A stretch of DNA of 47,497 bases, the filler included, from Catajapyx aquilonaris (Eukaryota), in NCBI GenBank assembly GCA_000934665.2. It is 2 parts of 2 records of this genome, joined end to end, with 100 filler letters (N's around TTAATTAATTAA, not from the genome) between each part and the next. Parts side by side here need not be neighbours in the genome. Positions count along the whole stretch, not along the records: positions 1 to 23,790 come from KZ539390.1; 1 more part is not named here. One strand, 5' to 3'. Below the pieces are notes generated by a model. The model saw only the letters and a program-made list of their open reading frames with translations. It did no database searches and was not told the origin of the DNA. Position 1 is the first letter of the stretch. Each line of letters starts with the position of its first letter. A program made the translations under genes and the position numbers. Below, one piece after another: positions 671 to 23,285 of the stretch.

Positions 671-1928
671 ATGGAGCCTGCGAAAATGGGGTGAGTAAGT
701 GTCCCAATTAGTACTCGACTTATGTCTAAATTATATATGTTGGAGGCTATAATATGCCTGTTTTATATCTGCATCGCATCTCTGGGCCTGCAGACAAGTT
801 CCACAACAATGTAGGCTAATGTCTCTGCATTGCAAAAGAAAGGGTGCATATGGGACTGGAGCTACAAGAGTGATTAATAACAATGGCATTTATTAGCTTA
901 AAATGCAACAGAAGTTATAACACATTTTTGATGGCAGTCCCAACGGATATGGCTCTACCATGCGATAGCCTGTTAATCCGGTATTTTCAAGCTGCCTGGA
1001 AGATCCTCATCAATCCTTTGGTCCTATTCCAGGCTAAGGCATTGGTAAAGCGCAGTGCGACCGGGAGACCAAAAAGTGCAGGTAATGCTTTTATCGGCCT
1101 TTGCTTTGGTAGCTAACCGCGGTGATTAGGATATTTATTAATTATTAATTAAATAATTTAAGTCCCTATAGAAGACTTTTCTCTCGCAGATTTTTTTTTC
1201 TGCGAGAGAAAAGTCTTCTATATAGGGAAGCGCACTAGTCAGAGAGAACCTTCAAGGCTGATGCAGAGAGAATTGCCTATTCTCTTCGTGACACAGGCTA
1301 TAGAATCAATCACTTGACGCATTAAATTGGAATGACAGCTGTAACCCAATAACTGTTAATAATTGTAGCATTGATAATTTCAGGAGGAAGAGCGACAGCA
1401 AGACGAGCGACAGCAGCAAGACGAGCGACAGCAGCAAGACGAGCGACAGCAAGACCAGCGACAACAAGACGAACGACAGCAAGACAGAGGACCGTAACAG
1501 TTACTCGGAGGAGATCGATAGGATATAATGCTGAAACCATGACAACTCGATCATATCCCACACCGACCACATTGTTTAGAACGAGAATGACCACACGGTA
1601 CTATACTAAAACCACCGGAAGATATCCTACAACAGGAGTGTATACTGGAACAACCTTAATGTATACTGTAACAAATGGGTGGTATAGAGGAACCACCGGA
1701 TATCTTACTCCAACAACTGTATATTGCACTGAGACTGTACAGTACACTGGAACAACTGGAATGTATACTGGAACGACTGTAAATTGTACTGTAACAACCA
1801 GGGGGTATACAGGAACTACTGGGCCGTACACTGGAACCACTGGGCCATACACTGGAACTACTGGAAGGTATACGGGAACTACCGGACCACACACCGGGAG
1901 AACCCAGAGGAATACCAGAAAACACTGA
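671..1928 (+). CDS. Secreted-precursor family gene A (5'-incomplete); tail Arg/Ala/Thr-rich then Thr/Tyr/Gly heptad repeats (YTGTTGP)
   Basis: Exons 671-690 (20-nt microexon, xGACENG), 1033-1081 (AKALVKRSATGRPKSA), 1384-1928 (GGRATARR...YTGTTGP...RKH*), all AG/GT-bounded with the same phases as paralogs. AATAAA 1998-2003. Upstream exons uncertain (candidates 164-199 VRELLRSSERRC, 511-534); signal exon probably before the window. Confidence 0.75.
1167..1222. repeat. Perfect 24-bp inverted repeat with 8-T loop in last intron of gene A (mini-MITE-like)
   Basis: tatagaagacttttctctcgcaga (1167-1190) and its exact reverse complement (1199-1222). Confidence 0.85.
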
Positions 1929-2912
1929 AGCATATTGTAACGACCCCTGCCGCTTCGTAGAACGGCAGGACAAGAGAAGGTGGACATGAGAGAGAAAAAT
2001 AAAATTGAATAAGCATGATAGTTAGAATTTGAACTAAATGGGAATAAAAACATGACCATTAAAAATTGCAAAAATGTTTACAGGGAGGAATGAAGCTAGA
2101 TTACTTGCTAACGTCATTGATGATGTAAAATGACTGCAATATCAATACGGTATTGTAGACAAAAATGAGGGACAATAATCACTAGTAATTAACAAGTTCC
2201 GGTCCTTAAAGAGCAAAGGAAATCAAAATAGACATTTTCTAATATTTCAACAAACGTTGCCTTTATAGTCACTTGCACATTTCTGCTGTCTTAATAATTG
2301 CGCTTAATTGTTTCCTGCAACCCAGTAATTATGTTCTCTTGGACATGTTTTTCTTGTAGAATAATTCGACTATGCTAAATATTTGCATGTTAGCATGTGC
2401 TTTCTTTCACTTCTAATATGTTAAACAGTCGCCTCTATAGATGAGGACACTGATGCTTGCAGCGCTTTTGACCGAGTTTCATTCTTGATTTGCTGCTAAT
2501 TTATTTGCTCCGCATTTTAATAATCGAGAGAAACCCGGAACAAGTGGTTAATCCCATTTAGATAATGCAGCTTGATTACACTATTTTTCTGAGTTTACCA
2601 TTGACCTCAAGACCAAACAAACTAAATCAAAGTAAGTGTATGGCCATAGTGTCACAGGGAGGCCCGCTATTATGCTGCTGTCTTTCAGTGATGACCGTTG
2701 TCACGCATCCCGTGTCACGCAAGCAGCTCGCAATTCTGGCGACGTATCATGCTACAAAGATGATTAACGACGTGAATTTACAATGGCTTTCGGGAGGATG
2801 TGCGTCACCAGAGAAGAGCTAGATGTCTGCAAAATATCGCAATCACAAAAGTTGCTTATATCAAGCTCAGTTGAAGACGGATGCACCCACCATAGTTAGC
2901 CGAGGAGTGAAG

Positions 2913-3926
2913 ATGACTGTGACTGTCGCAGTGTTGGCTTTCGTCACATGCACTGTGGTGAGTCCACTGTTGATTGTTGAACGATGAATTTGGTGATTGC
3001 AAAATAGTATAGTTAATAATAATAATAATTGTTCAGTTATGTAGAAAATCTGCGAATTATTAAAAATCAGGCTCAGTCTCATGAAGCACTTATTGGGTCT
3101 TTCAGAGTATCACTTTTGCAAACGGGTTGCCCTTGGCCATGGGCGGTCAATACATTTCAGCCGAAGACAAAGGTATATGTACGGATCACGAAAGTGTCAC
3201 CGTAATGCTCCGAAAGTATGTTGCAACGAGCACATTTTAATTCAAAGTCTTCTCTTTTCCAGGGAATCATTGGCCATTAACGGTACGTTCTTAACTATAC
3301 ACTTGGATTATTTTTGGTTTGTCATTGTTATGGTGACATTGCTTAACAGTGACAACTTGGAAGCTTGTATGATCCATATGAAAGACCACGTTGTCTACAA
3401 AATAATTCTGTTTTCTCGTTCCAGATATGCACTATGCCGAATAAAACGATTGCCGAAATAAACTACGATGACACTAGCGACAAGTACTTCGCATGTAAGC
3501 ACTTGTACAAGAATATTGTACAAAATCACTTCAGACTGAACAGCAGTAATGAGCATCGGTATACCTATGATTTCAGTAAATATTTTGTCGGTGTTTGGTT
3601 TCCATGACGCGTCCCGAGTGAAGCTTTCTGAAGGACAGCAGGTCAACAAAATCGGAACAACATCGATGGTAGGACATCCTCCGAAGCATCAGTCAAACCA
3701 GAAGGAAAGGTTGAGAAGAAGTCCGCAAGGAAAAGGCAAAGAGAAAAAGGAGGAGAAAGAAAAGGAGAGGAAGGAGAGGAAGGAAAAGAAAGAGCAGGAG
3801 AAGAAGGAACGAAAGGATAAGAAGGAACAAGAAAAGAAGGAACGAAAGGATAAGAAGGAACAAGAAAAGAAAGAGCGGAAAGAAAAAAAAAGGAGCAGGC
3901 AAAGACAGAGAGAGGAAAGACAATAA
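2913..3926 (+). CDS. Secreted-precursor family gene B (divergent), ~183 aa, Lys/Glu/Arg-rich tail
   Basis: Exons 2913-2957 (MTVTVAVLAFVTCTV), 3106-3172, 3263-3282 (20 nt, GNHWPLT), 3425-3494, 3577-3926; phases 0,1,0,1 and open throughout; RLRR|SP site precedes (EQEKKERKDKK)-type repeats; AATAAA 3947-3952. Confidence 0.7.
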
Positions 3927-4420
3927 TAAGGATGAGAAAGAAAAGTAATAAACACCCTAATCCAAATTAATTTCCCTTACAATAATTTGCACCCACTTCA
4001 TGAATTAATTTTGCTACCTACCCTCTCCATAATTATTTAGGCTATAAGTTTCGGAACAAAAAAAAAAGTCAGGTACTGTTGCCATTTAGGAAAATTTTCT
4101 TGTCAATTCTGAACGGGTATGACTGTAATTAGCGGCTTAGGTACCTAACGCTGAAATGATAATCATAACTCAGATTGCATTGTTAAGGTAGGGGATCAAA
4201 TCAGAGAGTATAGCGCACGTCGGCAAAATTAATCAGTCACCGACGTCACAATGAGAAATATCCACAATGGATATTTTTAACAATGACAGGCTAGCAACGG
4301 CATGACAACGATGGTCAACAGCAGTTGCTGGGATTGAGCACCATTGTTGGCGAATTGGAGTTGGAGGGTTAGGTGGGTCGTCGACTTTACTAGTGCGGAT
4401 ACGGAGACAGAACAAGGAAG

Positions 4421-6958
4421 ATGCCTGAAGCAAAGAAGCTGGAGCTGGTCTCGACCATCGGGTTCGAAGGTCAATGCAATAAGAGGAGGTCAGCTCCTGA
4501 GCGTGAGTGACCGTGCTGTGTATTGTTGTGTTCTAGGCAAGGTCCTGTGTGGCGTGCACGTGCATCCGGACGGAGTGAACTGCGTGTACCCGACTGGTAC
4601 GTCCCTGGTGATGTCCGACCTCAAGTCTCCGAAGCAAAAGTTCTACAACGGACACACGCACTTCGTCAGCTGCATGTGCATCTCAAAAAGCGGAAAGTTC
4701 ATCGCCTCGGGGCAGGTCAACCACATGGGATTCAAGGTCAGCAGGTTTCCACATTGTTGAGTGACCAGTTGTTTCATTATTGTCATTGGGATTTGCAGGC
4801 GCCTGTGATAATATGGGACTGCGAGGGACGGAAGGTGTACGGGTCGCACGAGGTGCACAAGGTCCGGGTTGAGTCATTGTCGTTCTCGTGCCGTGACAGG
4901 TACGTAGCGTCGTTGGGCGGAAGGGACGACGCTAACGTGATAGTGTACGACGTGACCAAGAAGGAGCCACTGTGCGGCCTGCAGTCAGCCACGGGGCCCA
5001 TGGGTTACGCCAAGGTTCTCCGGTACCTCAACACCTCCGAGAAGCTGTTCCTGACCGGCGGGGACATGACCCTCCGCCTGTGGCAGCTGGACGTCCCCAA
5101 CAGGAAGGTGCTTCCGACCGACGCCCAGACCCGAAAGATCCGGAGAGTCATCCGAAGCCTCGAGATTGACTCCGAGGACCGCTGGGCCTACGGCGGGACG
5201 GAGACCGGGGACATCCTTCTGATCCGACTGGAGATCACTCGAACCGATCCTGGGTCGGGGAAGCCAAAGTACGACGTGTTGGCCACGCTGACAGACACCC
5301 TAGTGCGAGTACCGCGTAGGAAGGGAGAACCGCCTGACTTCTTCCAGAAGGGGGCCATGTCGCTGATGGTACTGGACGGAGGGAAGAGCCTCCTGGTCGG
5401 ATCCGGAAGCGGAAGGGTGTCGCTGGTACGTCGCAGGGAAGGAGTGTCCTCGAAGAAGCCAGGTCCGATGGGGAGCAAGTACAGCATCCCGATGCTGGAG
5501 GGGACGCTGGTCGAGGAGAAGGGCGTCAAGCTGGTAGGTGGCGTGACGTCCTTGAGCTGCCTCACGTCCGAGTCGGCCAAGGGGACAGTCCTGATCGGCA
5601 CTGACCACTCGCAGCTGTACCAGCTGGAGCTGGCCACCTTCACCACCAAACTCGTCCTGACCTGCCACATGGGAGGGGTCACCTGCGTAGCGTACCCGCA
5701 CGGCTGCTCGGACCTGTTCGCCACCAGCAGCCAGGAGGACGTCCGCATTTGGTCCACCCGCACGAACAAGGAGCTGCTGCGGATCTCAGTGCCCAACATG
5801 CAGTGCAGCGTGGTCGTCTTCACCAGGGACGGACGGTATCTGATGACCGGATGGAGCGACGGGGAGATCAGGTCCTTCACTCCCGAGACCGGAAGGAAGG
5901 TCTTTTCCATACACAATGCACACAAGATGGGGGTACGTATGTTAATGGTGGGAACGTCAACAGGAACGTAAATGCAAACGTGAACGTGAACGTAGACGTA
6001 GACGCGAACATAGACGCAAACGTGGACGTAGACGTGGACGTAGACGTGAACGTAGACGTGAACGTGAACGTAGACGTGAACGTGAACGTAGACGTCGACG
6101 TGAACGTAGATGTGAACGTAGACGTCGACGTGAACGTAGATGTGAACGTAGACGTAGACGTAGACGTGAACGTAGACGTGAACGTAGACGTAGACGTAGA
6201 CGTGAACGTAGACGTAGACGTGAACGTGAACGTAGACGTGGACGTGAACGTAGATGTGAACGTAGACGTAGACGTGAACGCAAACGTGAACGTGATGTCA
6301 ATGGCTTTTCCTTCAGGTGAGCGCCCTGGCTGTGACGTCTGACGGCAAGCGGTTGGTGAGCGGCGGTCGTGAGGGTATCGTGCGGATGTGGGACATCACC
6401 CCCCATAAGCAGACGTTGCTTGGGAGCCTGAACGAGCACAAGGGGGCGGTGACGTGCATCCACATCCGGTCGACGGACAAGGAGTGCGTGACGTCGAGCA
6501 GCGACGGGAGCTGCATCGTCTGGGACCTGGACAGGTTCGTGCGGAACCAGATCATGTTCGCCAACACACTCTTCACAGGGGTGCGGTACCACCCGTCGGA
6601 GGTGCAGATCATCACTTGCGGGACGGACAGGAAGGTCGGGTACTGGGAGACGCTGGACGGGTGCAGCATCCGGGAGCTGGAGGGATCCCTGACGGCGGCG
6701 GTCAACGTCATCGACGTCACAGCCAACGGACTCTGCATGGTGACTGGGGGTGTGGACATGGTGGTCAAGGTCTGGAGGTACTACGAGGGGGACGTGTCTC
6801 ACGAGGGGCACGGGCACACCAGCCCCATCACCGCCTTGGGGATCAGCCCCGGGGCCAAGTTCATCATCACCGCCAGCTCAGGAGGGGCCATCTTCCGATG
6901 GAAGTTCCCCGAGATCGACACCAAGGGGAAGCCTGTCACTGCCGGTTCTGTGCCCTGA
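4421..6958 (+). CDS. CFAP52: Cilia- and flagella-associated protein 52 (WD40 repeat, WDR16/FAP52), ~674 aa
   Basis: Exons 4421-4469, 4537-4736, 4799-5932, 6317-6958 join in frame. Recognisable CFAP52 motifs: LELVSTIGFEG, HPDG..YPTG, IASGQVNHMGFKAPVIIWD, SLGGRDDA, KELLRISVPNM, GWSDGEIRSFTPETG, DGSCIVWDL, TCGTDRKVGYWE, IRELEGS, GAIFRWKFP. AATAAA 7022-7027. Confidence 0.95.
5963..6295. repeat. Hexamer microsatellite (RACGTR)n in CFAP52 intron 3
   Basis: Continuous gacgta/aacgtg/gacgtg/aacgta units between donor 5933 and acceptor 6316. Confidence 0.95.
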
Positions 6959-7414
6959 TTGATTGGCGGCATAATATATGGCAGCCAGAGTAGCGGAAGA
7001 GAGTTTATTTGTGACAATAATAATAAAAGTAGAACCTGGTTTTATCGACTTGACACCATTGTTGTTGTTTTCTTGGGAGGACCGGGGGGGGAAGAGAGAG
7101 GCAACGCTGTGTCCATAGCACTACTGCGTGTTTCAGAATGTAGCACACGTTTCTCTGAAAGAATGGATTATTTGCGGATAAGTGGCCAAATCTGCAGTCA
7201 TTGGGGATTATTATTGTTCCACCAAGTATACGTATAACAAGGAGTTCAGTACAGTAAGTACCCGTTTTACGCGGCTCCATTTTACGCAGTTTCACATTAG
7301 TGCAGGTTCGAAATTCATGATTTACAAACTATTTGCATGTGCAGTACAACAATGTTCTCAGAAGATGAGGCAATGAGGCATACAAGGGGTGGTTTAGTGA
7401 ACGGTGGCTTAAGT

Positions 7415-7826
7415 GCCAAATAATATTGGCATAATGTTGCGGATTTTTCTAACAGTCGGAATATAATTAGTGTTGCCAGCTGCAAGAGGAGCTTTATGAA
7501 GCTAAAATTAATTAAAAATTATCTACGTACCCCTATGAGCACTTGAAGGTTGGGTAATTTTGCTATGTTGTCAAATTGGCAAGAATTATTGACTAATCAA
7601 ATTGATTTTGACAGATTTGCGGCCCAAAAAGCAAGGAACGAAAAATTGTCATGGCGATGAATATATGAAACAAACAATAAGCAATAACCTTTACTTTGAC
7701 CTTTTTCCAAGAGCATAGCATTTTGATCTTAAAGATTTTTTGCCTGCAATTAATAAAATTAAATGGTAATTATTGAAATTTTAGATCTGCCCCGGGCGCT
7801 CCTATAACCTTAGTATAGGCGCCACT
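7415..7826 (+). mobile_element. hAT transposon 3' remnant (C-terminal dimerisation domain plus terminus)
   Basis: Reads ISVASCKRSFMKLKLIKNYLRTPMST*RLGNFAMLS, matching the hATC motif SVASCERSFSKLKLIKNYLR; internal stop; ends in gccccgggcgc...ggcgccact like a hAT terminus. Confidence 0.8.
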
Positions 7827-8227
7827 ACATTCAATTGCAGTAATTTTTTTCTCCTCTTTGCATTGTTGTGTGTGGCAGGAAGGATCAATGACACATATTC
7901 TTTTCCCACAGTCATTGTTGGGCGCATTCTTCGGAACATTTATTTTTATGCAAGTTATCCTTCACACGCATATACTTGAAACCTTTTTCACACTATGCGC
8001 CAAGGCCTGGTGGGCATGTATTCATACAATACACTGCACAGCCGACAATAGGCGACAATGTGACACACGCACTTCCTGACCATCGAGTCGACCGAAATGA
8101 GTAAGTGTATTTCACTTCGCATATCCGAAGAGGCGTAATTCGAAACGCCTTTCTGAATGACGTGGGATGCGACCATGACCCTGAGACAAATGTGTCACCA
8201 AAAGCAGCCTCCAGTACCAATTTGCAC

Positions 8228-8247
8228 ACCGGTATATTATATAAAGG
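8228..8247 (+). promoter_or_regulatory. TATA box of gene C (family motif ACCGGT(A/T)TAAAA-GG)
   Basis: accggtatattatataaagg ~45 nt before ATG; equivalents at 11103-11117, ~13012-13023, 15635-15649, ~17747-17760, 20133-20146, 22024-22037. Confidence 0.7.
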
Positions 8248-8286
8248 TGCATCGGACAGCTGCATCGCATTCGCTGCGAAGAAGAG

Positions 8287-9428
8287 ATGAAGCTCTGTCT
8301 CGTCCTGATTGTTGCCTCGCTCTGTGTCGCCTGCGCTGCGGTGAGTCACCCTCAATTCGCTTTACAATAATTAAACAAGGGCCTTACAATAATTTAGCTT
8401 GGAGAGTTGCCCTCTGATTGACATTATGTGCAGCGGATATTACAACGTTTTAATAATGTGAACAGTTTTGTCGCCGACACGCCTGCAATTCACTCACAAT
8501 GACTTTGCTTTTCAGGGCTCGCCATTCTCCAAGATCCGAGAGTTTTTGTCTGATTCGGATCAGGAAATCGAGTGCCACGGTGAGACGGCAGTCTTTTGAT
8601 TAATGAAATATGACTCTTCCAAGTGCTGCATTGAATGTTGGTTATGATTTTGTGTCGTCTTTTCCAGATGGAGTGTGTTCATCCACGGTGAGTATATAGT
8701 TCACCTCATTACGCAACACTCCGAAACACACTTTGGAAAAACCATGGCGCAATTACTTGAGATATATTGCTTCAAAAAATATTCACAATTTTGTATACTC
8801 TGAGTTCATGGTATTGACAATATTTTGGCTTCCCAAATACAAAAATCACAAAAGTACAGAAAAATTTATAATCACTGGCCCACAACATTACGAAGGGCAA
8901 CATTATGACTCTTTAGAAGAGTGTAGAGGATTGGCTGAATGGAATAAGACGATCAATGCTACTTATCAAGAGAGGAGAGTCTCGTATTATGTATCCATAA
9001 TGACATGTCTTTATAAGGAGAAAGGGTTGACAGTGACGAATAATTTTCAGGTGAACAGACTGTCGAAGCGAAATGCTGAGAGTGACCTGGAGCAGCGGAC
9101 AGACGACGGTGAGTGACATGGTCAACTCTGCTGTGGTCCAGTGGTCATCACACCCTTCTTCACACATATAGTGTCACATAAGTGGCCGTCGCATAATGTA
9201 GCCACACGGCCTTTTATTTTCTTAGGTATTGCCCGAGTGAAGAGGAGTCCGAACCGAGAGGAAAGGAACAGGGAGAGGAATGAGGACAGAAGGGACGAGA
9301 GGAGGGAGGACAGAAGGGACGAGAGGAGGGAGGATGGAAGGGAGGAGAGAAGGGAGGAGAGAAGGGAGGATGGAAGGGACAGGAACAGAGAGGAGCGCAG
9401 GAGAGAGGAGGAGAGGAGGAGAGGATAA
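8287..9428 (+). CDS. Secreted-precursor family gene C, 132 aa, Arg/Glu/Asp-rich tail
   Basis: Exons 8287-8340 (MKLCLVLIVASLCVACAA), 8516-8579 (GSPFSKIREFLSDSDQEIECH), 8668-8687 (DGVCSST), 9051-9108 (VNRLSKRNAESDLEQRTDD), 9226-9428 (GIARVKR SPNREERN...RRRG*); AATAAA 9721-9726; exons far better conserved than introns versus D/E/F. Confidence 0.9.
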
Positions 9429-11150
9429 ACACACAATAACTCAAGAGGGAATCTAATTCCGATGATTCACATGAAATATGTGGCCAGATGACCGCTATAG
9501 AAGCAATCACTGAAGAGGCTCCTCTTTCATGATTGGACTCTGCGAAACTGTCCCGTATTTTTGCGCAACATCGGATTAGATTGCTCCGTAGACAGAGGAA
9601 AAGGTGTTAATACCATGAGACCATATGCAGTCCATGCAGACACTTCAATCCTCTGTATAATTAGAATTGTCCCACCGCGCCTCACCACTTTCCCACCTTC
9701 CTATATTATGTGTACTGATCAATAAAATCATTGTGCATCATACTTTTGTGTCGTTCATGAGTTGCTTGATTGTCTCACAGAGTTCGGTTGTTATGGCTCC
9801 AAAGAGTCTTTCACCCGGCCGCAAACATAATAGATACGAGTTGCAGTACCCAGTGACAACACCTACGATAACTAGCATAGACCATGCAGTACGAATTTGT
9901 ACACAACAAACCAGTGCAGCAGAAGTCAAATTGGGCAAGGAAAACAATATGCACTTATACTGTAATACTGTGTAATAACTATTTATTAATAGCACAAGGG
10001 ATATTAACCAGACAAACTTGAGCCAAAAGAACAGTAATAAAAATCCTGCCAGAATCTGGCGATACTTAGCCATAACAAGAACGAGCACCAGCTGGTTCCT
10101 CAACATCGCACGGTTGCGACCTTGTAGTTGACGAGGATGATATTTATGAATATTATCCTCTTTTCTTCGTAGTGGAACCAGTCGAATAACGTTACGAATA
10201 GAGAGTCGTACGCCCATCTCCAAGGCTGCAGCTTATCGGCGACTGCCTAACGAGTCAAGGTAATATCAGAAGACAATCGGATTGATGCATCAGACTACAC
10301 AAACCCCCAAAAATGGGGCAAGTATAGTCCTTGAGACATTATCATAATCCACGGATCACATGACATTGCCGTTGGCTGCGAGGGCGGAAGCTATCAAGTT
10401 TCCCAGATGAACCACAGTAGAAAATCGTCACAAATATTATAACACGTACTGTAATAACGCTTGCATTAGCTACATACAGTTTAATGCAGGCACATTTCAA
10501 ATTGAGGACTTCTATGCAATAAATATTAATCTTACATTACCAACAATTATTTTGAAGTTTGAAGGACGAGACTGCATTGGAATGGTGTGACAGGTATACT
10601 TCTCGGTACACTGGTGATTATAATAAACAGCTCATAGCTTTAAAGTAATAAACATTTATTGTTCACTAACATCCATCCTGGACTGTATACATTACATTCA
10701 ATTGCAGTTATATTTGCTCCTCTAATCGCATTGTTGTGTGTGGCAGGAAGGATCAATCTCGCATATTCTTCCCACAGTCATTGTTGGTCGCATTCTTCCG
10801 AACAGTGCTTTTTATGCCAGTTAACCTTCACAAGCACTTGAAACCTTTTTCACACTATGCTCCAAGGCCTGATGGGCATGTATACAATACACCGCACAGC
10901 AGACAATGGGCGACAATGTGACACACGCACTTCCGGGCCATCGAGTCGCCCGAAATGAATAATGAGAAGTGTATTTCACTCCGCATATCCGGAGAGGTGT
11001 AATGTGCAAGGACTTTCCGCATGTCGATGACGTGATGCGACCATGACCCTGATAACAAAAGTGACATGCCTACCAAAAGCAGCCTCCAGTACCAATTTGC
11101 ACACCGGTATAAAAAGGTGAATCGGACAGGTGCATCGCTGCGAAGAAGAG

Positions 11151-12331
11151 ATGAAGCTCTGTCTCGTCCTGATTGTTGCCTCGCTCTGCGTCGCCTGCGC
11201 TGCGGTGAGTCGCGCTTAAAGGCCATTTCACAAAAAAAATGTCGCGCGGCAAATGGCGCGACTTGCGGCAAATTTTTATTTATATTTATTGTTGCCAATT
11301 GTTGGCAACAATAAAATTTGCCGCAAGTCGCGCCGTTTGCTGCGCGACATTTTTTTTGTGAAATGGCCTTAATTCGCTTTACAATAATTAAACAGGGGTC
11401 TTACAATAATTAGCTTGGAGCGTTGCCCTCTGATTGACATTATGTGCAGCGGATATTACAACGTTTTAATAATGTGAACAGTTTTGTCGCCGACACGCCT
11501 GCAGTTCACAATGCCTTTGCTTTTCAGGGCTCGCCATTTTCCAAGATCCGAGAGTTCTTGTCTGATCTGGATCAGGAAATCGAGTGCCACGGTAAGATTT
11601 GTTGATTCATGAAAATATGACTCTTCCAAGTGCTGCATTGAATGTTGGTTATGATATTGTCATCTTGTGTCGTATCTTCCAGATGGAGTGTGTTCATCCG
11701 CGGTGAGTATATATAGTTCCGCTCATTACGCAACACTCCCAAACACACTTTGTAAAAACCACGAGGCAATGACTGGAGATATCATTTTCAGGTGAACAGA
11801 CTGTCGAAACGAAATGCTGAGAGTGACCTGGAGCAGCGCATAGACGACGGTGAGTGACATGGTCACCTCTGCTCTGTCCAGTGGTCATCAAACCATTCTT
11901 CAGACATCATGTGCTGCAGAATGATTGGTCGCCCTGGCCTTATAATATGTGATGACACGACCTTTTCCTTTCCAATAGGTATTGTCCGAGTGAAGAGGGG
12001 CGGCCCCGGGTCGGTGCGCGTGGGCGAGAATGGGGCTGGCACGCCCCCGCCCCCTGCAACCCGTCGTCCTCGGGGAGGAAATAAGAGGGGGAAGAGGAGT
12101 CCTCGCCGTATTAACAGAGGGGAAAGGAGAAGGGAGCAGAGAGAAAGGAATCGGGAGAGGCAAGAGGACCGACGGGAAGAGAGGGAGCAGAACAGGGAGC
12201 ATCGTCAGGAGGAAGAGAGGGAGAGGGAGAAGCACAGAGAGGAAGAGGAGAACTTGGAGAGGGAGCACAGGAGAGAGGAAGAGGAGAAGAGGAGGAGGGA
12301 CCAGAGGAGGCACCAGAGGAGGAGAGGATAA
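11151..12331 (+). CDS. Secreted-precursor family gene D, 182 aa, Pro/Gly peptide plus Arg/Glu tail
   Basis: Exons 11151-11204, 11528-11591, 11683-11702, 11792-11849, 11979-12331 (GIVRVKR GGPGSV...PPPP...KRGKR SPRR...RRRG*); AATAAA 12584-12589. Confidence 0.9.
11220..11369. mobile_element. 150-bp palindromic MITE with TAA target duplication (PIF/Harbinger/Tourist-like) in gene D intron 1
   Basis: aggccatttcacaaaaaaaatgtcgcgc... inverted at ...gcgcgacattttttttgtgaaatggcct; TAA at 11217-11219 and 11370-11372; paralogs C, E, F show the empty site. Confidence 0.9.
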
Positions 12332-13054: not shown

Positions 13055-14200
13055 ATGAAGCTCTGTCTCGTCCTGATTGCCTCGCTCTGCGTCGCCTGCG
13101 CTGCGGTGAGTCACCCTCAATTCGCTTTACAATAATTACAATAACAATATTCAGCTTGGACAGTTTCCCTCTGATTAGCATGTTGCATAAAGGGTATTAC
13201 AACATTCTAGTACGCTGAACAGTTTTGTCGCCTGCAGTTCACGATGCCTGTGCTTTGCAGGGCTCCCCATTCTCCAAGCTCCGAGAGTTTCTGTCCGATG
13301 CTGCGGTTCAAGAAATCGAGTGTCACGGTAAGATTGCATGTCCTTGTGTCCTGTAATGTCACAGAGCGATGGACACATTGTCAAGTGCAGCTTTGAACTG
13401 TCGTTATGATATTGTACTGTCCTTTCCAGATGGAGTGTGCTCATCCACGGTAAGTCCGGCTTATTACGCAATACTCTGAAGACACTTGGGAAAATCGTGA
13501 AAATTAACTGTTGGCAATATATGGGTGCAGGGAAGGGATGCATTATGCATCATTGTGCGTGTGGCTGCAGCATGTAGGTTTTATTTCCCTTCCAAAATAT
13601 AATTTCAAAAGCGTACGAAAATGTACATGACATGTCTTTATGGAGAAATGGTGACAGTGACGAATAATTTTCAGGTGAACAGACTCTCGAAGCGAAATGC
13701 AGAGAGTGACCTGGAGCAGCGGACAGACGACGGTGAGTGACATGGTCAACTCTGCTCTGTCCAGTGGTCATCAAACCATTCTTGAGACATCAAGTGCCGC
13801 ATGATTGGTCGCCATGTCCTCATAACGACCTATTTCCTTTCCTATAGGTATTGTCCGAGTGAAGAGGGGCGGCCCCGGGTCGGCGGGCGTGGGTGAGAAT
13901 GGGGGTGGACTGCCCCCGACTACGCCCCCTCCTAAGAAGAGGGGGAAGAGGAGTCCGATCAGGGCCAAAAGGAGTCCGAACATCAGGGGCGAAAGGCAAA
14001 GGGAGGAGATAGAACGTGAGAGGGAGAGGCACGAGGACCGAAGGGAACTGATGGAGGAGATGAGGGAGCATCGTCAGGAAGAAGAGAGAATGAGGGAGAA
14101 GCACAGAGAGGAAGAGGAAAGGCTGGAGAAGGAGCACAGGAGGGAGGAATTTGAGCAGAGAAGGAGGGACGAGTGGAGCCAGAAGATGAACGCACTGTAA
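13055..14200 (+). CDS. Secreted-precursor family gene E, 182 aa, Pro/Gly peptide plus Arg/Glu tail
   Basis: Exons 13055-13105, 13261-13327, 13430-13449, 13675-13732, 13848-14200 (RVKR, RGKR and RAKR sites; ends ...WSQKMNAL*); AATAAA 14508-14513. Confidence 0.9.
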
Positions 14201-15677
14201 CTCTGGAGGGAATCTATAATGCCGATGTTTCACCCGAAATGTATATGTGGCGGATTAGCCCCTCGAGAACCAATCACTGAAAGAGGCTCCTCTTTCATGA
14301 TTGTATTCTGCGAAACTGTCCTCCTCCATATTTCAGCACAACATCGGATTCGATCGCCCCGTAGACAATCATAGGAAAAAGGTCTTAATACCACGAGACC
14401 AGATGCAATCCATGCAGACACTTCAATATTGTATAATCGCCTGGCATTATCCCACCGCGCCTCACCACTTCTTCCTATGTTACACATAAATGTATGACCC
14501 TCTGAACAATAAAATTATTGTGCATCCTGCCTTTGTGTCCTCCAGGAGTTGGTTGATTGGCTCATAGAGTTCGATGGTAATTGATCAAAAAAAGGGTTTT
14601 CGCCTCATATTATGAACGATTAGGAAATTGTTAAAGTTTCCACGCTGCGGAACTATGACAATCGTATTCAGGATTTCCCAGCATAGATCATGTGATTTCG
14701 CATAAATCTGCCAGCATGTAATCATGTTTGCTAGTACCGACGTCTATAATAAACTAATACATTCAAAAATTTACTTGCACTTTTCATGTCCTGAAAATGG
14801 AATATTAATTTCTCGTCACCTTAAGCTGCTTTAGCTCCATGTTACTATTACTTGAATTTTATTACCTCATACAAAATATATTAAATGATTTTAAAACTTT
14901 ATTTTAATACGCGATTTAAAAAAAAATCCATCGCCCCTCGTCTTTTTCACACTGTCCGTGATGACTCTTCTGTGGGAATCATATAAAACTGAAGTGATAT
15001 TTCTAGACTTGCAAACATTCTGCAGAATAGATGGAAAATGTATGGATTATGTTCCGGACTGCCAACGAATAGTTTGAATGCAAATTTCTTGTAATGACGC
15101 GCTAAAAACAACAATCACGACACTGATCTGTTGAGACCGGTTATTCTCTATAAACTGGTTGTTGCAATAAATTCCACAGCGAAAGTTATAGATTGTTATT
15201 ATTCACCAATCTCCATATTTGACAGTAGATATCCAACGACAATCACTTATAGCGTGTGATTTTTTAAAAAATCAGGAGGGAACACCCAGAAAATTTTCCC
15301 ACGGTTTTTGTTGGGCTTTTTTCTCTTCGATAGATTGCCTTTTTGCTCACGTCATCCTTCACGAGCACTTCAATTTTTTTAAAGCTCTCGGCCAAGGCCT
15401 GTTGGGGAAGTGCAATAAACCCCAGAAACAACAATAGGCGACTGTACAACTGGCACCTCACATCAGGACCAGGAAGCCTCGAAAATGAGTAATAAGCGGC
15501 AATAATTCCCGCCGCATGTGTAATCCTCGCGGGCGTTCCACGAGTAATATGTCGATTACGTGACGCAACCCAGACCCTGGGAACAAAGGGACACGCCAAC
15601 CGAGAGTACAAGCATCCATAAACGATGTCCCTCCACCGGTATAAAAAGGTGAATCGGACAAATTACATCAAGAAGCC

Positions 15678-16809
15678 ATGAAGCTCTGTCTCGTCCTAAT
15701 TGTCTCGCTCTGCGTCGCCTGCGCTGCTGTGAGTCCATTTTAATTCGCTTTAGATTGATCACCTTGCAGAGTTGCCCTCTGATTAACATGCTGTATAACG
15801 GGTATAACCATGCTTAACAGTAAGTTCACAATCCGTGTGCATTGCAGGGCTCCCCATTCGCCAAGCTACGAGAGTTTCAGTCCGATGTGGATCAAGAAAT
15901 CGAGTGCCAGGGTGAGATTTCACGTTGTTGTTTCGTTCCTCAGAGCACCAGACTTTGCCTAGTGAGATTTTGAATGTTTGTTATATACTTTTGTATGGCC
16001 TTTTCGCTTTTCCAGATGGAGTGTGTTCATCCACGGTGAGTCATGCCCATTATGCAACACTCTGAAGACGCTGTGGAAAACCGTGTCATTGGCATATATT
16101 GGCAGGATATTGGTGCAGATATTTTTTTTTTGTAGAAATGTACACCCTGTACGGAATATGCTGAATGGGATAATGCGACCAACATATGCCAATCTTACTT
16201 CTCAAGTGTCTCATATTATTTAATGGTCATGCTGTATTTTTATTATGCAAAAGCAATTTAATTCAACTATTGATGATAGTAGCGAATGTTTTGTAGGGAA
16301 ACAGATTGTCGAAGCGAAACGCCGAGATTGACATGGAGCAGCGCACAGACTACGGTAAGTGACGTATAGCTCGTTTCAGCGAGGGTATAATAATTATATT
16401 CTTCTCAAATATTGTCGATATGAATACTCAAGATCGGTCTGGATTAAATCAAAGGCAATTTCTATGCTCTCTGACATTTTCTACAGATTGATCAGGCGTA
16501 ATTTTGAAACTATTTGCCAATGTATAATTAGAACCTTCGTCGAGACTTGACCATTACAATCTTCTGACATACGTGGTCAAAATCACACGACCCTTTTTTT
16601 CTCGACCATCAGGATTGTTCCGAGTGAAAAGAAGTCCGGTTGATGCTCGAGAGGAAAGGAAGAGGGACAAATACAGGGAGAGGGAGGAGAGGAAGAGGAA
16701 CAGGCAGCAGGAAGAGGACCTGAGGGAAAGGAACAACAGGCAGGAGAGGAAGTTGAAGGAGAAGAACAGGAGGCAGGACGAGAGGAGCGACAGGAGGAGG
16801 GAGGGGTAG
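15678..16809 (+). CDS. Secreted-precursor family gene F, 129 aa, Arg/Glu/Lys tail
   Basis: Exons 15678-15728, 15848-15911 (GSPFAKLREFQSDVDQEIECQ), 16016-16035, 16297-16354 (GNRLSKRNAEIDMEQRTDY), 16613-16809 (GLFRVKR SPVDAREER...RRREG*); AATAAA 16945-16950. Confidence 0.9.
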
Positions 16810-17797
16810 ACACGCACCAGAGAAGACCATTCTCTGCTTGCCACGAGAAGTCCAGATGCGAACAGTATAGTCTGCAATATATTAGCACAGCTGCTGTCCC
16901 ACCGCGCCCAACCAATGCACGTTGCTGTAATACACATTATCACCAATAAAATTATGCCTGCATCGCTATTTCTTGTCTGATCTTTCATTGTTACTGGCTT
17001 ATCAAGTCAAAGGATGGCGAAAAGTTGTGGATTGTTTTGACGTGGATACGTCTTTAAAATCGGATCAGGGGGCATGCAGGCAAACTCGAGAGTTACAGAA
17101 AAGCGTTACAGCCCCCGCCAGGGGTTTTGAGAAAACCAATAAATTTCATTGGGGAAAGAGCAAGAAAATAATCATGCACATTTGCCATATTTAAATTATT
17201 CTTCCTACAGCACTCGTCAAATTATTTCGTAAAACGCAACACAAGACAAAATTTCACAAAATGTCAACCCGAATAATTTATGAGACAGCTGAATATCAAC
17301 ATCGGCGGATATCTGCTGTACATATCACGCTAGAAGCAGTGCGATGTAGACACCTCTAAAGAATCATTGGGAAGAGTACGTGACAACTCTTTGTGGATGC
17401 TACCATTTGAAAGAGTTCACACGGAGAGCAATCACAATATCACTATATCAGCAGTGACATAACAATTTCCTTCCTGTTATACTGAAAACGCACTATAAAA
17501 TATTGCGCCATTCCTCTAGTGTCTTCTCTTGCTTTTTTTTGTCACGCAAGGTCGTCCTGTCCATTCGTGACTTATGCGAAGAAGCAAGCTAATAAAATGC
17601 GGCTTAGTGGTTGACTTTTGGTCCATCCTATATCTGATGATGAGTAATGGCCATGGTTGGTGACATGGTGCTTGTCAGTAAATACTGGATGTGGTAAAAG
17701 CATTGCCCGCATGTGATGATTATTACTCACGCGAACACCTTGAAACACCATTAAAAGGGGGGGAAGAGTCGGAAAAATGGTATCGTTACATTTTAGG

Positions 17798-19075
17798 ATG
17801 AAGCTGGCGATTGTCCTTCTGGCCTGTTTGGCCTGCACACTGGTAAGAACCCTATCTCAATTAGCCTGCACTCATCACGTGCACTGAGACTGTAGCTATA
17901 TGCATTGTCACGCGATGTTGACATTTCCTATAGCCATGACACACACTTTGACAGGGATTTGTCCGGAGGTCTCCTGAAGATCGCCAACTGAGCGGATGCA
18001 ACGGTAAGCCCTACACAATGCATTCACCTTACAGGCCTGAAGTCACACCCCTTTAATTGTTGTTCACAATCATTGCTGTCTATTGTGGCTTCAGTACAGT
18101 TGAGAAGCTGAATGCATATATCCGCATGCATATGTATAAACAACTAATGAGAATCATGCCTTTTGAACAAAAGTGGTCGCGTCATTAAAATCAGTTGACC
18201 AACGGTATTGTCTCGATTTCCAGATGGAGATTGCGCATTCCCGGTGAGTAAAATGTAGTCGATGTCATGAAGGAATAAAGCAATACCACGAATATTGTCA
18301 CCCCCTGTTTTGCATTTTAGGAGAGAACACTGGTGAAGAGAAGCGAAGTCCTGCCTGCAAAACGCAATTCAGGTAATCAGAGTTCCTTGTATAGGTAAGG
18401 TTGGTTGCACCACTGGCAGGATACACAGTACCTCTCGTTACATTGCCAGCAATTATTTGCACTTGTCACGCACAAATCTGGAAAAAAGAATTAGCTGACA
18501 GTGGTGATGCTCAGCCTGAATAATTCCCATTCCCATTCCTCGAGCCACTTTTTTGTTGCTTAATTGTTAACACGAGCTTCTCAAGCTGGCTTGGTGGCAA
18601 GAAAGAAGTGGGTGTGTGAATGAGCCTTAATTGGCCGGTGAGTGTTGTCCTTAAGTGTTTTGGTCGCATGTTTGCAGCAGCGGTCCAGGTGCGTGTGAGG
18701 AAGCAAGGGAAGAGGAGGCGTGGAAAGAGGCGGAGAGGAGGAGGGGCCAGGAGGAATAGAGGCGGGGCCAAACGTTGCGGGACTGGAGGTGGAGGCGGGG
18801 GAGGAGGTCAAGGAGGAGGTCAAGGAGGAGGTCAAGGAGGAGGATCATTCTCGTTTGACCTCAACGGTGGGGTCGGAGGTGGGATCGGACAATTCGTCGG
18901 AGGTGTTATCGGAAACGGGACAGGGTCTCCGATCGGAGATATTATTGGAGGTGTGGTGGAGGCAGGGGTCGGGCAATTTGTCGGGGGCTCGGTCAGCGGG
19001 TCAGGAAACGTCGCCGGGTCAGGCTCTGGAGGAGGCGGAGGTGGTGGGAGAGGAAGAGGAAAGAGGCGGAAGTGA
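17798..19075 (+). CDS. Secreted-precursor family gene G, ~187 aa, basic Gly-rich tail
   Basis: Exons 17798-17842 (MKLAIVLLACLACTL), 17955-18003 (GFVRRSPEDRQLSGCN), 18224-18243 (DGDCAFP), 18321-18372 (ERTLVKRSEVLPAKRNS), 18678-19075 (AAVQVRVRKQGKRRRG...GGQGGG...GRGKRRK*); AATAAA 19166-19171. Confidence 0.9.
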
Positions 19076-19311
19076 AAGACCTGATGACAACTATATCAGC
19101 AACCTGTATCACGTCCCTGGCGTAATTAGAAGCAATTATGACTATCAACTTATGTACCGGTACGCAATAAAACTGTCAAAAATTAAAGTCGACATTCATT
19201 ACGGTATGTACCCTTTCGAGCAAAAATATCTGGAGTTTGGTTTGGTTTCTTTCAGGAGCTAAGACCATAATGCATGGTCTCCTATATAGTAATATGTGGT
19301 ACCAGGAAGCA

Positions 19312-19654
19312 TATACTACAAAGAGGCGCACACTTCTGTCGGCGCCTTTGATGTTCGCGTCTCTCTGTTTGGGGCCGTTGCCAAGGCTGGCGGCCATTTT
19401 GACGTGTGGGGAACGCCTACGAGGTATAAATAGGGTACAGGCAAAAATAGGGTCCGCCATCTTTGATGGTTTTGGCGGCCATGGCAACTACACGGCAAGA
19501 ACACGCGCGAATCAAATATGGCGGACTCTGTTTTTGCCTGTACCCTATTTATACCTCGTTGGCGTTGCCCCCACTTCAAAATGGCCGCCAGCCTTGGCAA
19601 CGCCCCAAACAGAGAGACGCGGAAATCGAATGTTTGCGCCTCTTATGTAGTATA
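19312..19654. mobile_element. Foldback MITE (~340 bp, arms ~150 bp)
   Basis: tatactacaaagaggcgca...ccgccatctttgat mirrored by atcaaatatggcgga...tgcgcctcttatgtagtata with a few mismatches; TA-rich flanks; non-coding. Confidence 0.85.
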
Positions 19655-20182
19655 ATATACTACATAATCACCACTGTACCACCAGGGAGCATATTATGAC
19701 ATTTCTGAGTCGAGTACTACATTCACGGTTTCGCCATAACCTGCGCAACATTTCGACTATTGAAGACAATAGAAAGGGAGGGATCACAATATACTGAACA
19801 GTGATAAACGACTTCCTTCCTGCTAAAAAAAAGTACTTAAAATATTGCCTTGACTCCAGTGTCTTGTGTCCCAGGGTGTCACGCAAGGTCATCTTGTCAA
19901 ATCGTAGGAGGAGGCGAATAAAACGAGGCAAAATGAGTTGTGCTGAGGGTGTTTGTCCCATCCGGATGATGCTTCCTGAATCATAATAGATGGGCGGTGA
20001 CACGTGTTTGCCACCAGAGGTGCAGCCCTTTTTCAAGGTGGCCAACCCGAAATATAAGTTGCAAGGAATGTCAAAGCCATGTTGATATCAAAGACCATAG
20101 TCACACGCAACCAGCTCACAATGAGCCATGAAACCGGTTAAAAGGGGGGATGGGCTGAGGATATGGTTTCATTACACCCAGG

Positions 20183-21107
20183 ATGAAGCTTCTCTCCGTA
20201 GCGATTGTCCTGTTGGCATGTGTAGCCTTTGCTCTGGTAAGTCACTAATATCAAACAGTAAATATTTCCGCGAGAGCGAAAATAAATAGGGACAATTTAT
20301 TAGCCCATATTGATGCTAATATTAGCACACTTTGCATTTTATAAAATACAGTACACCTCTTATTGCATTAGCGGGAGATTCATTCATATTTAAATCCATT
20401 TTTATAGGGATATGTCCAAAGATCACGTGATAATGATCAAGTGGTCGGATGTCAAGGTAAGCTCATTTACCTGCACTCGTATTAATTTGCCAAACTGGAT
20501 TCGCACTAATTTGTGTATTTTTTCAGATGGAGAACGATGCTCTTTTCTCGTGAGTATCATACAAGAGTGTTCATCTGAAAATTATTGCAGCCATTTTTTT
20601 TCCTCCAAATTTACGTACACGAGAGAACACAAAATAATAAAGCGTGAATTGTTTCAGGAACGCACATTGGTGAAGCGAAGTGATGCTGTCGACGGGTATA
20701 CCCTCGATTTAGGTGAGATAGACCAATCTACCAGTCTGTAAACATTAAAATATAGCGTAGTCCATAATGTCAAATGGTCGATGGAAAAACTGGAGAATTT
20801 TTTTTAGAAATTGTGTCATCAGATTCAATTCAGACAAAATATTGTTTGTTATTGTTCAGTAGCTTCGAAGGTGCGTGTGAGGAGGCAAGGCAAAAAGGGC
20901 AGAGGAAAGCAGAGGAAAGGAGGAAGAGGAGGAAACAGAGGTGGAGGTGGAGGAGGTGGGGCAGGGGCCGGGGCAGGAGCAGGAGCAGGGTCAGGGGGAA
21001 AAGCTGAAGCCGGAGCCTCCTTCGGGATGCAAGTTGGAGGTGGTATCGGAGGTGGGGTTGAAGGCGGTAACTTCGCTGGAATCGGTGGTGGCGGTGGAGG
21101 AAAGTGA
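20183..21107 (+). CDS. Secreted-precursor family gene H, ~142 aa, basic Gly/Ala-rich tail
   Basis: Exons 20183-20236 (MKLLSVAIVLLACVAFAL), 20408-20456 (GYVQRSRDNDQVVGCQ), 20527-20549 (DGERCSFL), 20658-20712 (ERTLVKRSDAVDGYTLDL), 20860-21107 (VASKVRVRR QGKKGRG...GAGAGAGAGAGS...GGGK*); AATAAA 21183-21188. Confidence 0.9.
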
Positions 21108-22066
21108 ATCATCAGGACGTCGGAAGAGGAAGATTCCAGCAATTGCGACACCCAATATTTTGTAACTAGAGTAACGATCACGAATAAAAAAGCGGCACAC
21201 ATGCACACATTCAATGAAACTGCAAGTGTCATTTCATAACCAACGTTATGCATATCCACCATGCTAGCCATCTGGAGTCAACTGCGTTTTATCATGCAAC
21301 GTCCAACCGCACATAAAAATTTATGAAGGAAACGTTGCAACTATATAGTGACAAGCTTTTATGCACCTAGTTACATAATATGAACTTTTCCTTTACAGTG
21401 TATCCTTCAATCTATAGATTCACGTCTATAGTGCTGAAAACACTCGATGTCTCGATTCAGACTATAATTATTTTGTGCTTGCAACTACCACTAGCAAGTG
21501 CCCGCTGTAGCATCACAAATGGAGAAGAAAATCGCCAGTAATGTTGTTACACGGGATAGGAGTAGAACAATATAAAGCACAGAAAGAGTAAGCACAACTG
21601 AACTGGTGGCAATTGCGCAACTGATCATGTTCAATAATTAAGTGAAGGAAATCAATCATGTAGAACACTGTATCCTGTCCAGCATGATTGTTCTGCAGAT
21701 ATACAGGTCTGCGTGTAGTTGGACAATACTCCACTGGCAAAGGATTAGTGTACACCTGTCAACTCGCTGTTGTTTGCAGAATATTATGTAATGGAAGTAA
21801 TCATAATTTAGTGGTGACATAACAACTTCCTTTCCATGGAAACCCCTCATTGTCTGATACCTTCTGTCTTCTGCTGCCAGGCAAATCAAATGTGGCTTTG
21901 ACCCATTCGGATGGTGTTTCCTGGGAGGTGACACACGCCAATCACCGAAACAACACCCTTTTGATGGTGTCAAAGGCCACTCACCTCCCACTCACGCTAA
22001 TAAAGGTCACAATGCGATTTGAAACCGGTTAAAAAGGAGGCATGCCTACGTTTCATTACACTCGGA

Positions 22067-23285
22067 ATGAAGCTTCTCTTCGTGGCGATTGTCCTCCTGG
22101 CCTGTGTGGCCTTTACTCTGGTAAGTCACTATAATATCAAACAGTACGCGGTTTCCACTAGAAACACCTTATTTTCATGCCACGTAGTTATTATGCCATA
22201 TTATATTGCATGGAATCCCTTAATTAAAGTTAAGATATTTCAGGAGGAACATTAACTTCAACACCGTATTCAGTTCCTTTGTTGCGATAGGAAAAAAAAA
22301 CGTGACATAGATTTCTACAAGATAATAACAGTCCTTTTTTTACATTCAACTTGTCATATTCCTAGGGATTTGCCCGGAGGTCAAGACGTGGTGATGATCA
22401 AGTGACCGGATGTCAAGGTAAGTCCATTTATCTCTGCACTCGATCAGTTGACTGACGCCATTTGTTTTCTTTCATTTGCTTATACTTATTTAGACGGAGC
22501 ATGCGCATTCCCGGTGAGTACATGCACACCAGTTGAAGTGTTACATGATTCACAAACAATATGTACGCAAGTCCAGCTAACATAACCCCGCATTGTTTCA
22601 GGGAAGCAAGCAGGTGAAGGCAAGTGATGATGCCAACGGGTACAACAATGATTCAGGTAGAGCATGCCTATACCACACGACCAATGGATGTTTCAAAAAG
22701 ATTGTACTCTATATAAAAGTTCGCACGGTTATTTCAGGGGCGTTTAAGGTGCTTCGTGTGAGGAGGGACAACAAGAAAGGGAAGAAGAAGAGGAAGAAGA
22801 CGGGTGGAGGCGGGAAGAAGAATGGAGGTGGAGGAGAGGATGGAGGCGACGGTGGTGGAGGAGGAGAAGGAGGAGAAGGAGAAGGAGGAAAAGGAAAGAA
22901 GAAAATAGGAAAAGGAAAAGGAAAAGGTGGTGGGACAGGAGGCGGGGGAGGAGAAGGAGGGNNNNNNNNNNNNNNNNNNNNNNNNNNNNNNNNNNNNNNN
23001 NNNNNNNNNNNNNNNNNNNNNNNNNNNNNNNNNNNNNNNNNNNNNNNNNNNNNNNNNNNNNNNNNNNNNNNNNNNNNNNNNNNNNNNNNNNNAGGAAAAG
23101 GAGGAGCCGGAGGAGTCGGGGGCGGAGGCAAAGCAGGAGCCGGGGGAGGGGTCGGAGGCAATATGGGAGTCAATGTCGGAGGCAATATGGGAGTCAATGT
23201 CGGAGGCAATATCGGAGGAGGGGCAGGAGCAGGAGCTGGGGTCGGCGGAGAGGCCGGAAACTACGCCGGAAACTACGGTGGATGA
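22067..23285 (+). CDS. Secreted-precursor family gene I, Gly/Lys/Glu-rich tail (contains N gap 22962-23092)
   Basis: Exons 22067-22120 (MKLLFVAIVLLACVAFTL), 22366-22417 (GFARRSRRGDDQVTGCQ), 22494-22513 (DGACAFP), 22602-22656 (GSKQVKASDDANGYNNDS), 22738-23285 (GAFKVLRVRR DNKKGKKK...GGNMGVNV repeats...NYGG*). Confidence 0.87.

Follow-up and report, generated by a model that had tools for sequence, protein, structure and literature searches.

The stretch of DNA analysed here (47,497 nucleotides of Catajapyx aquilonaris, assembly GCA_000934665.2, referred to as the window) carries nine co-oriented genes, A to I, on the plus strand between positions 671 and 23285, as recognised by direct reading of the sequence and scripted assembly of gene models. 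The genes look like secreted, convertase-processed precursors, in which a conserved N-terminal part is followed by very different, low-complexity C-terminal parts, termed tails below. With a probability that we place at about 0.6, the array represents a genuine tandem family, restricted to its lineage, of small secreted precursors, each built for cutting into several products; this is a model of structure and processing.

Genes B to I have five exons each, with open reading frames and intron phases of 0,1,0,1, and gene A is recognised by its last three exons only, with phases 0,1. The 32 introns modelled in B to I and the two in A, 34 in total, are all bounded by GT and AG and are 70-363 nt long; the splice sites were picked with the expected phase pattern in mind, and alternative open combinations exist. 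Exon 3 is a microexon, of 20 nt in eight of the nine genes and of 23 nt in H. In these respects the scripted models agree with a first-pass annotation of the same DNA, which had proposed nine co-oriented genes, five exons with these phases in B to I and the same last three exons in A. The predicted products are small, with 129-242 residues before cutting. The tail of gene I is interrupted by an assembly gap of 131 N (22962-23092), across which the reading frame is assumed. Tandem NAGNAG acceptors open exon 5 of G (18678/18681) and of H (20860/20863); either acceptor keeps the frame, with a difference of one residue. When both strands of the whole window are scanned with a loose microexon pattern, 15 matches are found, eight of which coincide with microexons of the family where these are expected; the pattern detects no additional member after 23285 or on the minus strand.

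Exon 1 is the predicted signal peptide exon. In all eight genes with a known start it codes for nothing but a hydrophobic leader of 15-18 residues with a mean Kyte-Doolittle value of 2.2-2.6, and the residue that opens the exon after the leader is Gly in seven of the eight. A TATA-like box lies 38-49 nt upstream of the ATG in seven of eight genes (at -49 in C), and a poly(A) signal is located downstream of every stop. D, E, F, H and I also have a related core-promoter word at the expected place, which describes these genes rather than tests them, since the pattern was derived from the same sequences. A second upstream word, TKACGTGR, is found near 8158, 11028, 12957 and 15556, 98-129 nt upstream of the ATGs of C, D, E and F, which are the four genes with Arg/Glu tails. 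Altogether it has five matches in the eight upstream regions, where 0.8 are expected, but the matches at C to F are not independent because these four genes are recent duplicates. This word has an ACGT core and resembles sites of the cAMP response element (CRE) or basic leucine zipper (bZIP) type.

The head, encoded by exons 2 to 4, has about 30 residues and L-x-K-R at its end; a short spacer comes next. The head contains a two-cysteine loop, C-x-D-G-x(1-2)-C, which runs across the joint of exons 2 and 3 in every gene except B. The L-x-K-R site is present in exon 4 of seven genes (A and C to H); I has KA at this place, and B has nothing comparable. A second basic site, RV[KR][KR], is encoded close to the start of exon 5 in C to I, as RVKR in C to F, RVRR in H and I, and RVRK followed by KRRR in G. 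Gene B has RLRR further into exon 5, and gene A is without a strict R-x-K/R-R at the start of this exon. Ser-Pro follows the basic site six times in B to F and once in the head of G. In primary structure, the precursors combine a signal peptide with an R-x-[KR]-R or dibasic site that precedes the product, which is the arrangement of a convertase substrate. The layout claimed at first pass, namely leader, 20- or 23-nt microexon, KR spacer and multibasic exon 5, is present in most of the array. It does not fully extend to B, which lacks both KR and the loop, nor to the KA of I, and A has the microexon and the KR of exon 4 but neither the strict site nor, in 1-670, a recognisable signal exon.

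The shared head is under purifying selection. The ratio of nonsynonymous to synonymous substitution rates (dN/dS) of the head is 0.11-0.32 in all six pairs among C to F and 0.29-0.52 in all three pairs among G to I, each comparison having only about 50 synonymous sites. Exons 1 to 4 are more alike than the introns in nine of nine within-class pairs. For the flanks, 400 nt downstream of the stop and 300 nt upstream of the ATG, an alignment is obtained only within C to F and, weakly, between H and I. Classes that can no longer be aligned in their non-coding DNA nevertheless have the Cys pair and the basic sites in common. A conserved Cys loop, purifying selection and a position between the leader and KR make it probable that the head is itself a product and not just a vehicle for delivery. 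The conserved chassis described at first pass therefore survives as a conserved N-terminal part, but it appears to be more than a delivery chassis.

The tails differ in chemistry from class to class. Tail A (Thr 35%, Arg 13%, Gly 12%, Tyr 9%) has an Arg/Ala/Thr-rich start, followed by Thr/Tyr/Gly repeats of 21 nt. Tail B, which comes after R-L-R-R-S-P, is 37% Lys and 28% Glu, and tails C to F are 21-43% Arg and 21-30% Glu. In G, H and I, Gly makes up 46%, 52% and 53% of the tail, with net charges of +16, +8 and +10. These counts match the four chemistries named at first pass: Thr/Tyr/Gly in A, Lys/Glu in B, Arg/Glu in C to F and cationic Gly-rich in G to I. The design proposed there, a conserved prepro region with a hypervariable C-terminal part, is supported.

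Each tail also has its own distinctive features. In C, RVKR-SP is followed by an Arg/Glu/Asp tail of 60 residues with Gly as its last; F has RVKR-SP, then Arg, Glu and Lys, and again a terminal Gly. In D, an insert of about 33 residues rich in Gly and Pro follows RVKR and ends in a second R-x-K-R, after which come the Arg/Glu tail and a terminal Gly. E is similar to D, but its C-terminus has diverged and is without the terminal Gly. When 14150-14200 of E is compared with 12280-12331 of D, the stop has the same aligned position and the last ten or so codons differ, E having lost the basic, Gly-ended C-terminus that is common to C, D and F. In G, RVRK and a stretch rich in Lys and Arg precede a Gly-rich part with hydrophobic stretches of the G-x-x-x-G type, and the tail ends in Gly plus four basic residues. 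H has RVRR, then a cationic part rich in Gly and Ala that ends in Gly-Lys; I has RVRR, then Lys and Gly with Gly-Asn-Met/Ile-Gly-Val-Asn-Val repeats, ending in Gly-Gly. The terminal Gly is kept in C, D and F although Gly makes up no more than 10% of these tails. Given what carboxypeptidases and the amidating enzyme are known to do, these termini, Gly or, in G and H, Gly plus basic residues, would fit C-terminal amidation.

Glu, Asp, Arg and Lys together account for a fraction of 0.65-0.85 of tails B to F. AlphaFold2 predicts the first 45 residues of the D exon-5 product to be disordered and residues 46-115 to form one helix of 70 residues, with a predicted local distance difference test score (pLDDT) of 95-98. 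The model of the G tail is of low confidence (mean pLDDT 50.7), with two weak helices over the Gly/hydrophobic stretch.

The tails appear to have grown where they stand. Tails B to I are 71-88% purine on the coding strand, compared with 46-50% in the introns. Tandem Repeats Finder (TRF) detects tandem repeats in eight of nine tails, E having none, and the best-scoring period is always a multiple of three (15 nt in A, 33 in B, 24 in C, 36 in D, 12 in F, 12 in G, 6 in H and 24 in I). The border between the conserved and the variable part lies inside exon 5, where the codons of the basic site align with the conserved part and share an exon with the tail. When exon-5 DNA is aligned across classes, z does not exceed 4.7 and the frame offsets are inconsistent, so that no convincing homology is detected; the alignment of D with E, by comparison, gives a z of 49.5, in frame. 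Because of the position of this border, the repeat periods divisible by three, the purine richness and the lack of cross-class homology, we conclude that the tails grew in place as in-frame minisatellite repeat expansions downstream of the conserved site, not by exon swapping. The interchangeable cargo exon of the first-pass annotation is therefore not retained, since the conserved site is in the same exon as the tail. An origin of the Gly-rich, Arg/Glu and Lys/Glu tails as different frames of one purine tract was also considered; attractive as it is for purine tracts, it finds no support in the same low z values and inconsistent offsets. Tail class follows position in the array (A, then B, then C to F, then G to I), and the classes are therefore older than the latest duplications.

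Table 1. Positions of the array genes, of tandem repeats in their tails and of the gene embedded in the array
Feature	Positions	Strand	Details
Gene A, last three exons	671-1928	+	exon 3 671-690 (20 nt, D-G-A-C); exon 4 1033-1081 (L-V-K-R); exon 5 1384-1928
Gene B	2913-3926	+	exons 2913-2957, 3106-3172, 3263-3282 (20 nt), 3425-3494, 3577-3926
Gene C	8287-9428	+	exons 8287-8340, 8516-8579, 8668-8687 (20 nt), 9051-9108, 9226-9428
Gene D	11151-12331	+	exons 11151-11204, 11528-11591, 11683-11702, 11792-11849, 11979-12331
Gene E	13055-14200	+	exons 13055-13105, 13261-13327, 13430-13449, 13675-13732, 13848-14200
Gene F	15678-16809	+	exons 15678-15728, 15848-15911, 16016-16035, 16297-16354, 16613-16809
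Gene G	17798-19075	+	exons 17798-17842, 17955-18003, 18224-18243, 18321-18372, 18678-19075
Gene H	20183-21107	+	exons 20183-20236, 20408-20456, 20527-20549 (23 nt), 20658-20712, 20860-21107
Gene I	22067-23285	+	exons 22067-22120, 22366-22417, 22494-22513, 22602-22656, 22738-23285
TRF repeat, tail A	1629-1886		period 21, 12.4 copies
TRF repeat, tail A	1390-1485		period 15/18/33
TRF repeat, tail B	3746-3892		period 33, 4.4 copies
TRF repeat, tail C	9273-9395		periods 24/12/36
TRF repeat, tail I	23151-23217		period 24
CFAP52 gene (WDR16-type WD40), apparently intact, unrelated, inside the array between B and C	4338-6958	+	large exons ~4511-5940, 6296-6958

The CFAP52 gene that interrupts the array has no close database relative: its best matches, scattered among barnacles, aphids, fish and flatworms, are only 39% identical. 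Its intron at 5978-6295 contains a minisatellite with units of 12/18/30 nt, in 17-26 copies with about 80% matches. All frames of this tract are open, and it gave false matches in a pattern scan for a furin site plus low complexity. Further along the window, mariner/Tc1-type transposase remnants lie on the minus strand at 26795-27627, with a partial DDE domain (PF01359, E 3.7e-07), a weak helix-turn-helix match and broken frames. Several copies of a tandem repeat of about 290 bp, 75-85% identical by self-BLAST, occupy 33157-34396. The trinucleotide-repeat tract at 40418-40885, which reads as poly-Ser, poly-His or poly-Asn on one strand and as poly-Thr or poly-Met on the other, is probably a microsatellite and not a gene. 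The window is eukaryotic DNA with 39-55% GC and an excess of purines on the plus strand across the first 24 kb, and a scan of it finds no tRNA and no Rfam family.

If the gene models are right, processing would include removal of the leader by signal peptidase. An enzyme of the furin or proprotein convertase type would cut at KR and at RV[KR][KR], and a carboxypeptidase would trim the exposed ends. The products released would be a disulfide-looped head of 28-34 residues, a short spacer and the tail. Trimming of Ser-Pro dipeptides and amidation (at the Gly that ends C, D, F and I, and at the Gly before the basic residues of G and H) are further possible steps.

Database searches, all of which used tails or exon-5 products as queries, reveal no relatives. 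When the G tail was compared with 5.8 billion proteins, 8000 candidates were scored and none reached E ≤ 0.01; a profile of the four Arg/Glu exon-5 products has no match at E ≤ 0.001 among 1.84 billion representatives. None of ten exon-5 translations reaches the gathering score of any Pfam family, the best being DUF6033 with 19.3 bits against a cutoff of 25 (gene B). A PDB sequence search with the G and A tails returns only chance-level matches (best E 0.16), and the ESM Atlas gives no usable match for the G and B exon-5 products. Since the queries were low-complexity tails, these empty homology searches are weak evidence. Searched as text strings, six head motifs occur in none of 8.1 million PMC papers and 0.36 million preprints, and a literature keyword search for Gly-rich, furin-processed arthropod peptides finds no matching family. 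The statement made at first pass that no named family can be assigned agrees with these tail-based searches and with the text search of the head motifs.

The array is a multigene secreted prepropeptide family of known design, distinguished by a Cys loop that spans a microexon and by four unrelated, repeat-born tail chemistries. The same design is familiar from the multigene families of frog-skin peptides and conotoxins, in which a conserved signal and pro region and a basic cleavage site precede a hypervariable product at the C-terminus. Variation in these products comes from point substitutions that leave the fold or length class unchanged. The tails of the array, in contrast, are unrelated repeat expansions, and its "pro" part has a conserved disulfide loop of its own.

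Among described systems, the Bomanins of Drosophila offer the closest set of shared features. According to the available excerpt of their description, ten Bomanin genes are clustered at 55C and share a conserved 16-residue Cys motif with CXXC; the "tailed" Bomanins have tails "rich in homopolymeric stretches", without conservation between them, and the genes are reported to be specific to the Drosophila genus (PMC4411088). As far as that excerpt goes, both systems have a tandem cluster of about ten small secreted-peptide genes, a short two-cysteine motif, unconserved low-complexity tails, N-terminal trimming and C-terminal amidation signals. In the array, however, the cysteines are four residues apart (five in H) and CXXC is present in none of the genes; the array family is therefore not a member of the Bomanins. 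Furthermore, it has a furin or dibasic site between motif and tail, and no such site is described for Bomanins in the excerpt. The five-exon plan with its microexon is particular to the array family. By analogy, the family may work like the Bomanins.

Two other systems resemble parts of the array, again on the strength of partial accounts. Baramicin paralogs share an N-terminal IM24 domain and yield several cleaved products (PMC9246212). What the excerpt describes is also the pattern of the array: a conserved N-terminal domain, a C-terminal content that varies or is lost, cutting into several peptides and an N-terminal product with a possible role of its own. The variable part of Baramicin consists of repeats of a defined peptide, whereas the tails of the array have differing low-complexity chemistries. 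Armadillidins are Gly-rich peptides ending in Gly, with a conserved signal peptide (PMC7017220). The tails of G to I are like peptides of the armadillidin, acanthoscurrin or serrulin type in being Gly-rich and cationic with an amidation-type end, and in combining a conserved signal peptide with a variable mature part. The latter peptides, however, have repeats of the GGGX or GGY type with Arg, Tyr, His and Phe, and their available account mentions no pro-segment, Cys-loop head or furin-type site. No relatedness to Gly-rich arthropod peptides is detected with the G tail among the 5.8 billion proteins, in the PDB or in the Atlas, or in Pfam with the tails of G, H and I. With regard to the charged tails, single alpha-helix (SAH) domains are, in the excerpts at hand, rigid connectors between structural domains (PMC5812594, PMC5347031). 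Tails B to F are like these domains in being 65-85% Glu, Asp, Arg and Lys, and the tail of D is predicted to be an uninterrupted helix, but the helix-favouring spacing of charges is no better than in shuffles, and the stretch in the array would be a free, secreted C-terminal peptide and not the connector that those excerpts describe.

Based on these analogies, we tentatively favour a role as circulating or epithelial host-defence peptides of the Bomanin/Baramicin type, even though we would give it somewhat less than even odds. The small Cys-containing head would be the common working part, to which the tails would add class-specific properties: cationic, Gly-rich, membrane-active peptides in G to I, rigid charged helices in B to F and a Thr/Tyr-rich, probably glycosylated stretch in A.

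Several observations weigh against this role or against the family model beneath it. All gene models, and with them the junctions and products, are derived from sequence alone, and no relative is known from beyond the window in the tail-based searches. The head of B is divergent, the identity of its exons 1 to 4 to those of C or G being no higher than intron identity; B is therefore included for its exon sizes and phases, its place in the array, its strand and the R-x-R-R-S-P junction. No signal-peptide exon of gene A is recognisable in 1-670, where two weak candidate donors of exon 2 are found at 199 and 479; A could be a truncated copy or have its start beyond the window. The Arg/Glu and Lys/Glu tails have a near-neutral to moderate charge (+1 to +14) and do not look antimicrobial. 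They also contain many internal RR and KR pairs, at which cutting in the regulated pathway could leave only fragments. Pairs of opposite charge at i/i+3 and i/i+4 in the charged tails are not more frequent than in shuffles (z -1.1 to 2.2), so that the single alpha-helix prediction rests on composition and on one single-sequence model. Finally, a kappa-B-like word, searched with a loose pattern in the 500 nt upstream of the eight ATGs, has no match where 2.4 are expected; since the motifs are those of Drosophila, this absence is only weak evidence against induction of the Toll/Imd type.

It is possible, if on the unlikely side, that the nine genes, as proposed at first pass, supply a multi-part secreted material of one gland, such as a glue, cement, silk-like thread or egg or spermatophore coat, whose chains associate by charge and cross-linking. 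The adhesives of sandcastle worms and mussels contain small, oppositely charged proteins rich in Gly and Tyr. All tails of the array are repetitive, of low complexity and of complementary chemistries; A, with 35% Thr and 9% Tyr, looks mucin-like, and I ends in Tyr-containing repeats. The genes are on one strand and have a related core promoter, and the Arg/Glu tail is predicted to be a rigid rod. However, the products are small, and they have the convertase sites and terminal-Gly signals that typically mark peptides. Selection acts on the Cys-loop head, for which a bulk material has no need, and the cationic tails lack a truly acidic partner, since the net charge of the tail is +1 to +23 in all nine genes.

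A quite unlikely elaboration combines head and tails in one function. Here the head would have been coupled, by runaway in-frame repeat growth within a single exon, to four polyelectrolyte modules that convertases co-release, and the tails would assemble by charge into a condensate or coating that concentrates the head or anchors it on microbes or surfaces. The modules would be a Gly-rich chain of cationic character, charged rods of Arg/Glu and of Lys/Glu, and a chain rich in Thr and Tyr that could be glycosylated. We know of no described defence or adhesion system made of free secreted single alpha-helices and Gly-rich polycations, although no literature search was aimed at it.

Hormone- or neuropeptide-like precursors, in which only the disulfide-looped head is bioactive and the spacers and tails are disposable and drifting, are very unlikely. 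Clear purifying selection is indeed seen only in the head, which lies between the signal cleavage site and KR. Loops of the C-x4-C or C-x5-C type, as in the array, are known from several arthropod peptides, and the many dibasic pairs of the tails would lead to their being chopped in the regulated pathway. Neuropeptide genes are, however, usually single copy, and nine paralogues, four of them with near-identical heads, would be unusual. Against such drift, the tails stay in frame, retain the character of their class and, in C, D and F, still end in Gly, and the dN/dS between the tails of D and E is 0.54 rather than 1, in an alignment that is itself uncertain. In addition, the head motifs are absent from PMC and preprint papers by string search, and the head is not known to match any named peptide.

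The array could, at worst, consist of decaying or never-expressed duplicates with over-fitted exon models and frames that stay open through purine-rich repeats, as the openness of all three frames across several tails, the choice of splice sites with knowledge of the pattern, the sequence-only models, the missing 5' end of A and the gap in I might suggest; this is highly improbable in view of eight complete intact frames with 32 of 32 GT-AG introns, exons more conserved than introns in nine of nine pairs, a head dN/dS below 0.55 in nine of nine, a Cys pair, KR and furin-type sites kept between classes, and conserved core promoter and poly(A) signals.

If the genes are expressed, the array would be a case of secreted peptides that diversify through the growth of in-frame repeats rather than through point mutation or exon shuffling, with the head, the signal and the cleavage sites staying fixed. 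It would also be a multi-product family like the Bomanins and Baramicins outside Drosophila. The array offers peptides that can be tested, namely a looped head of 28-34 residues, Gly-rich polycations and free secreted charged helices. Should it turn out to be the material kit of one gland, it would provide a compact set of small polyelectrolyte proteins for study.

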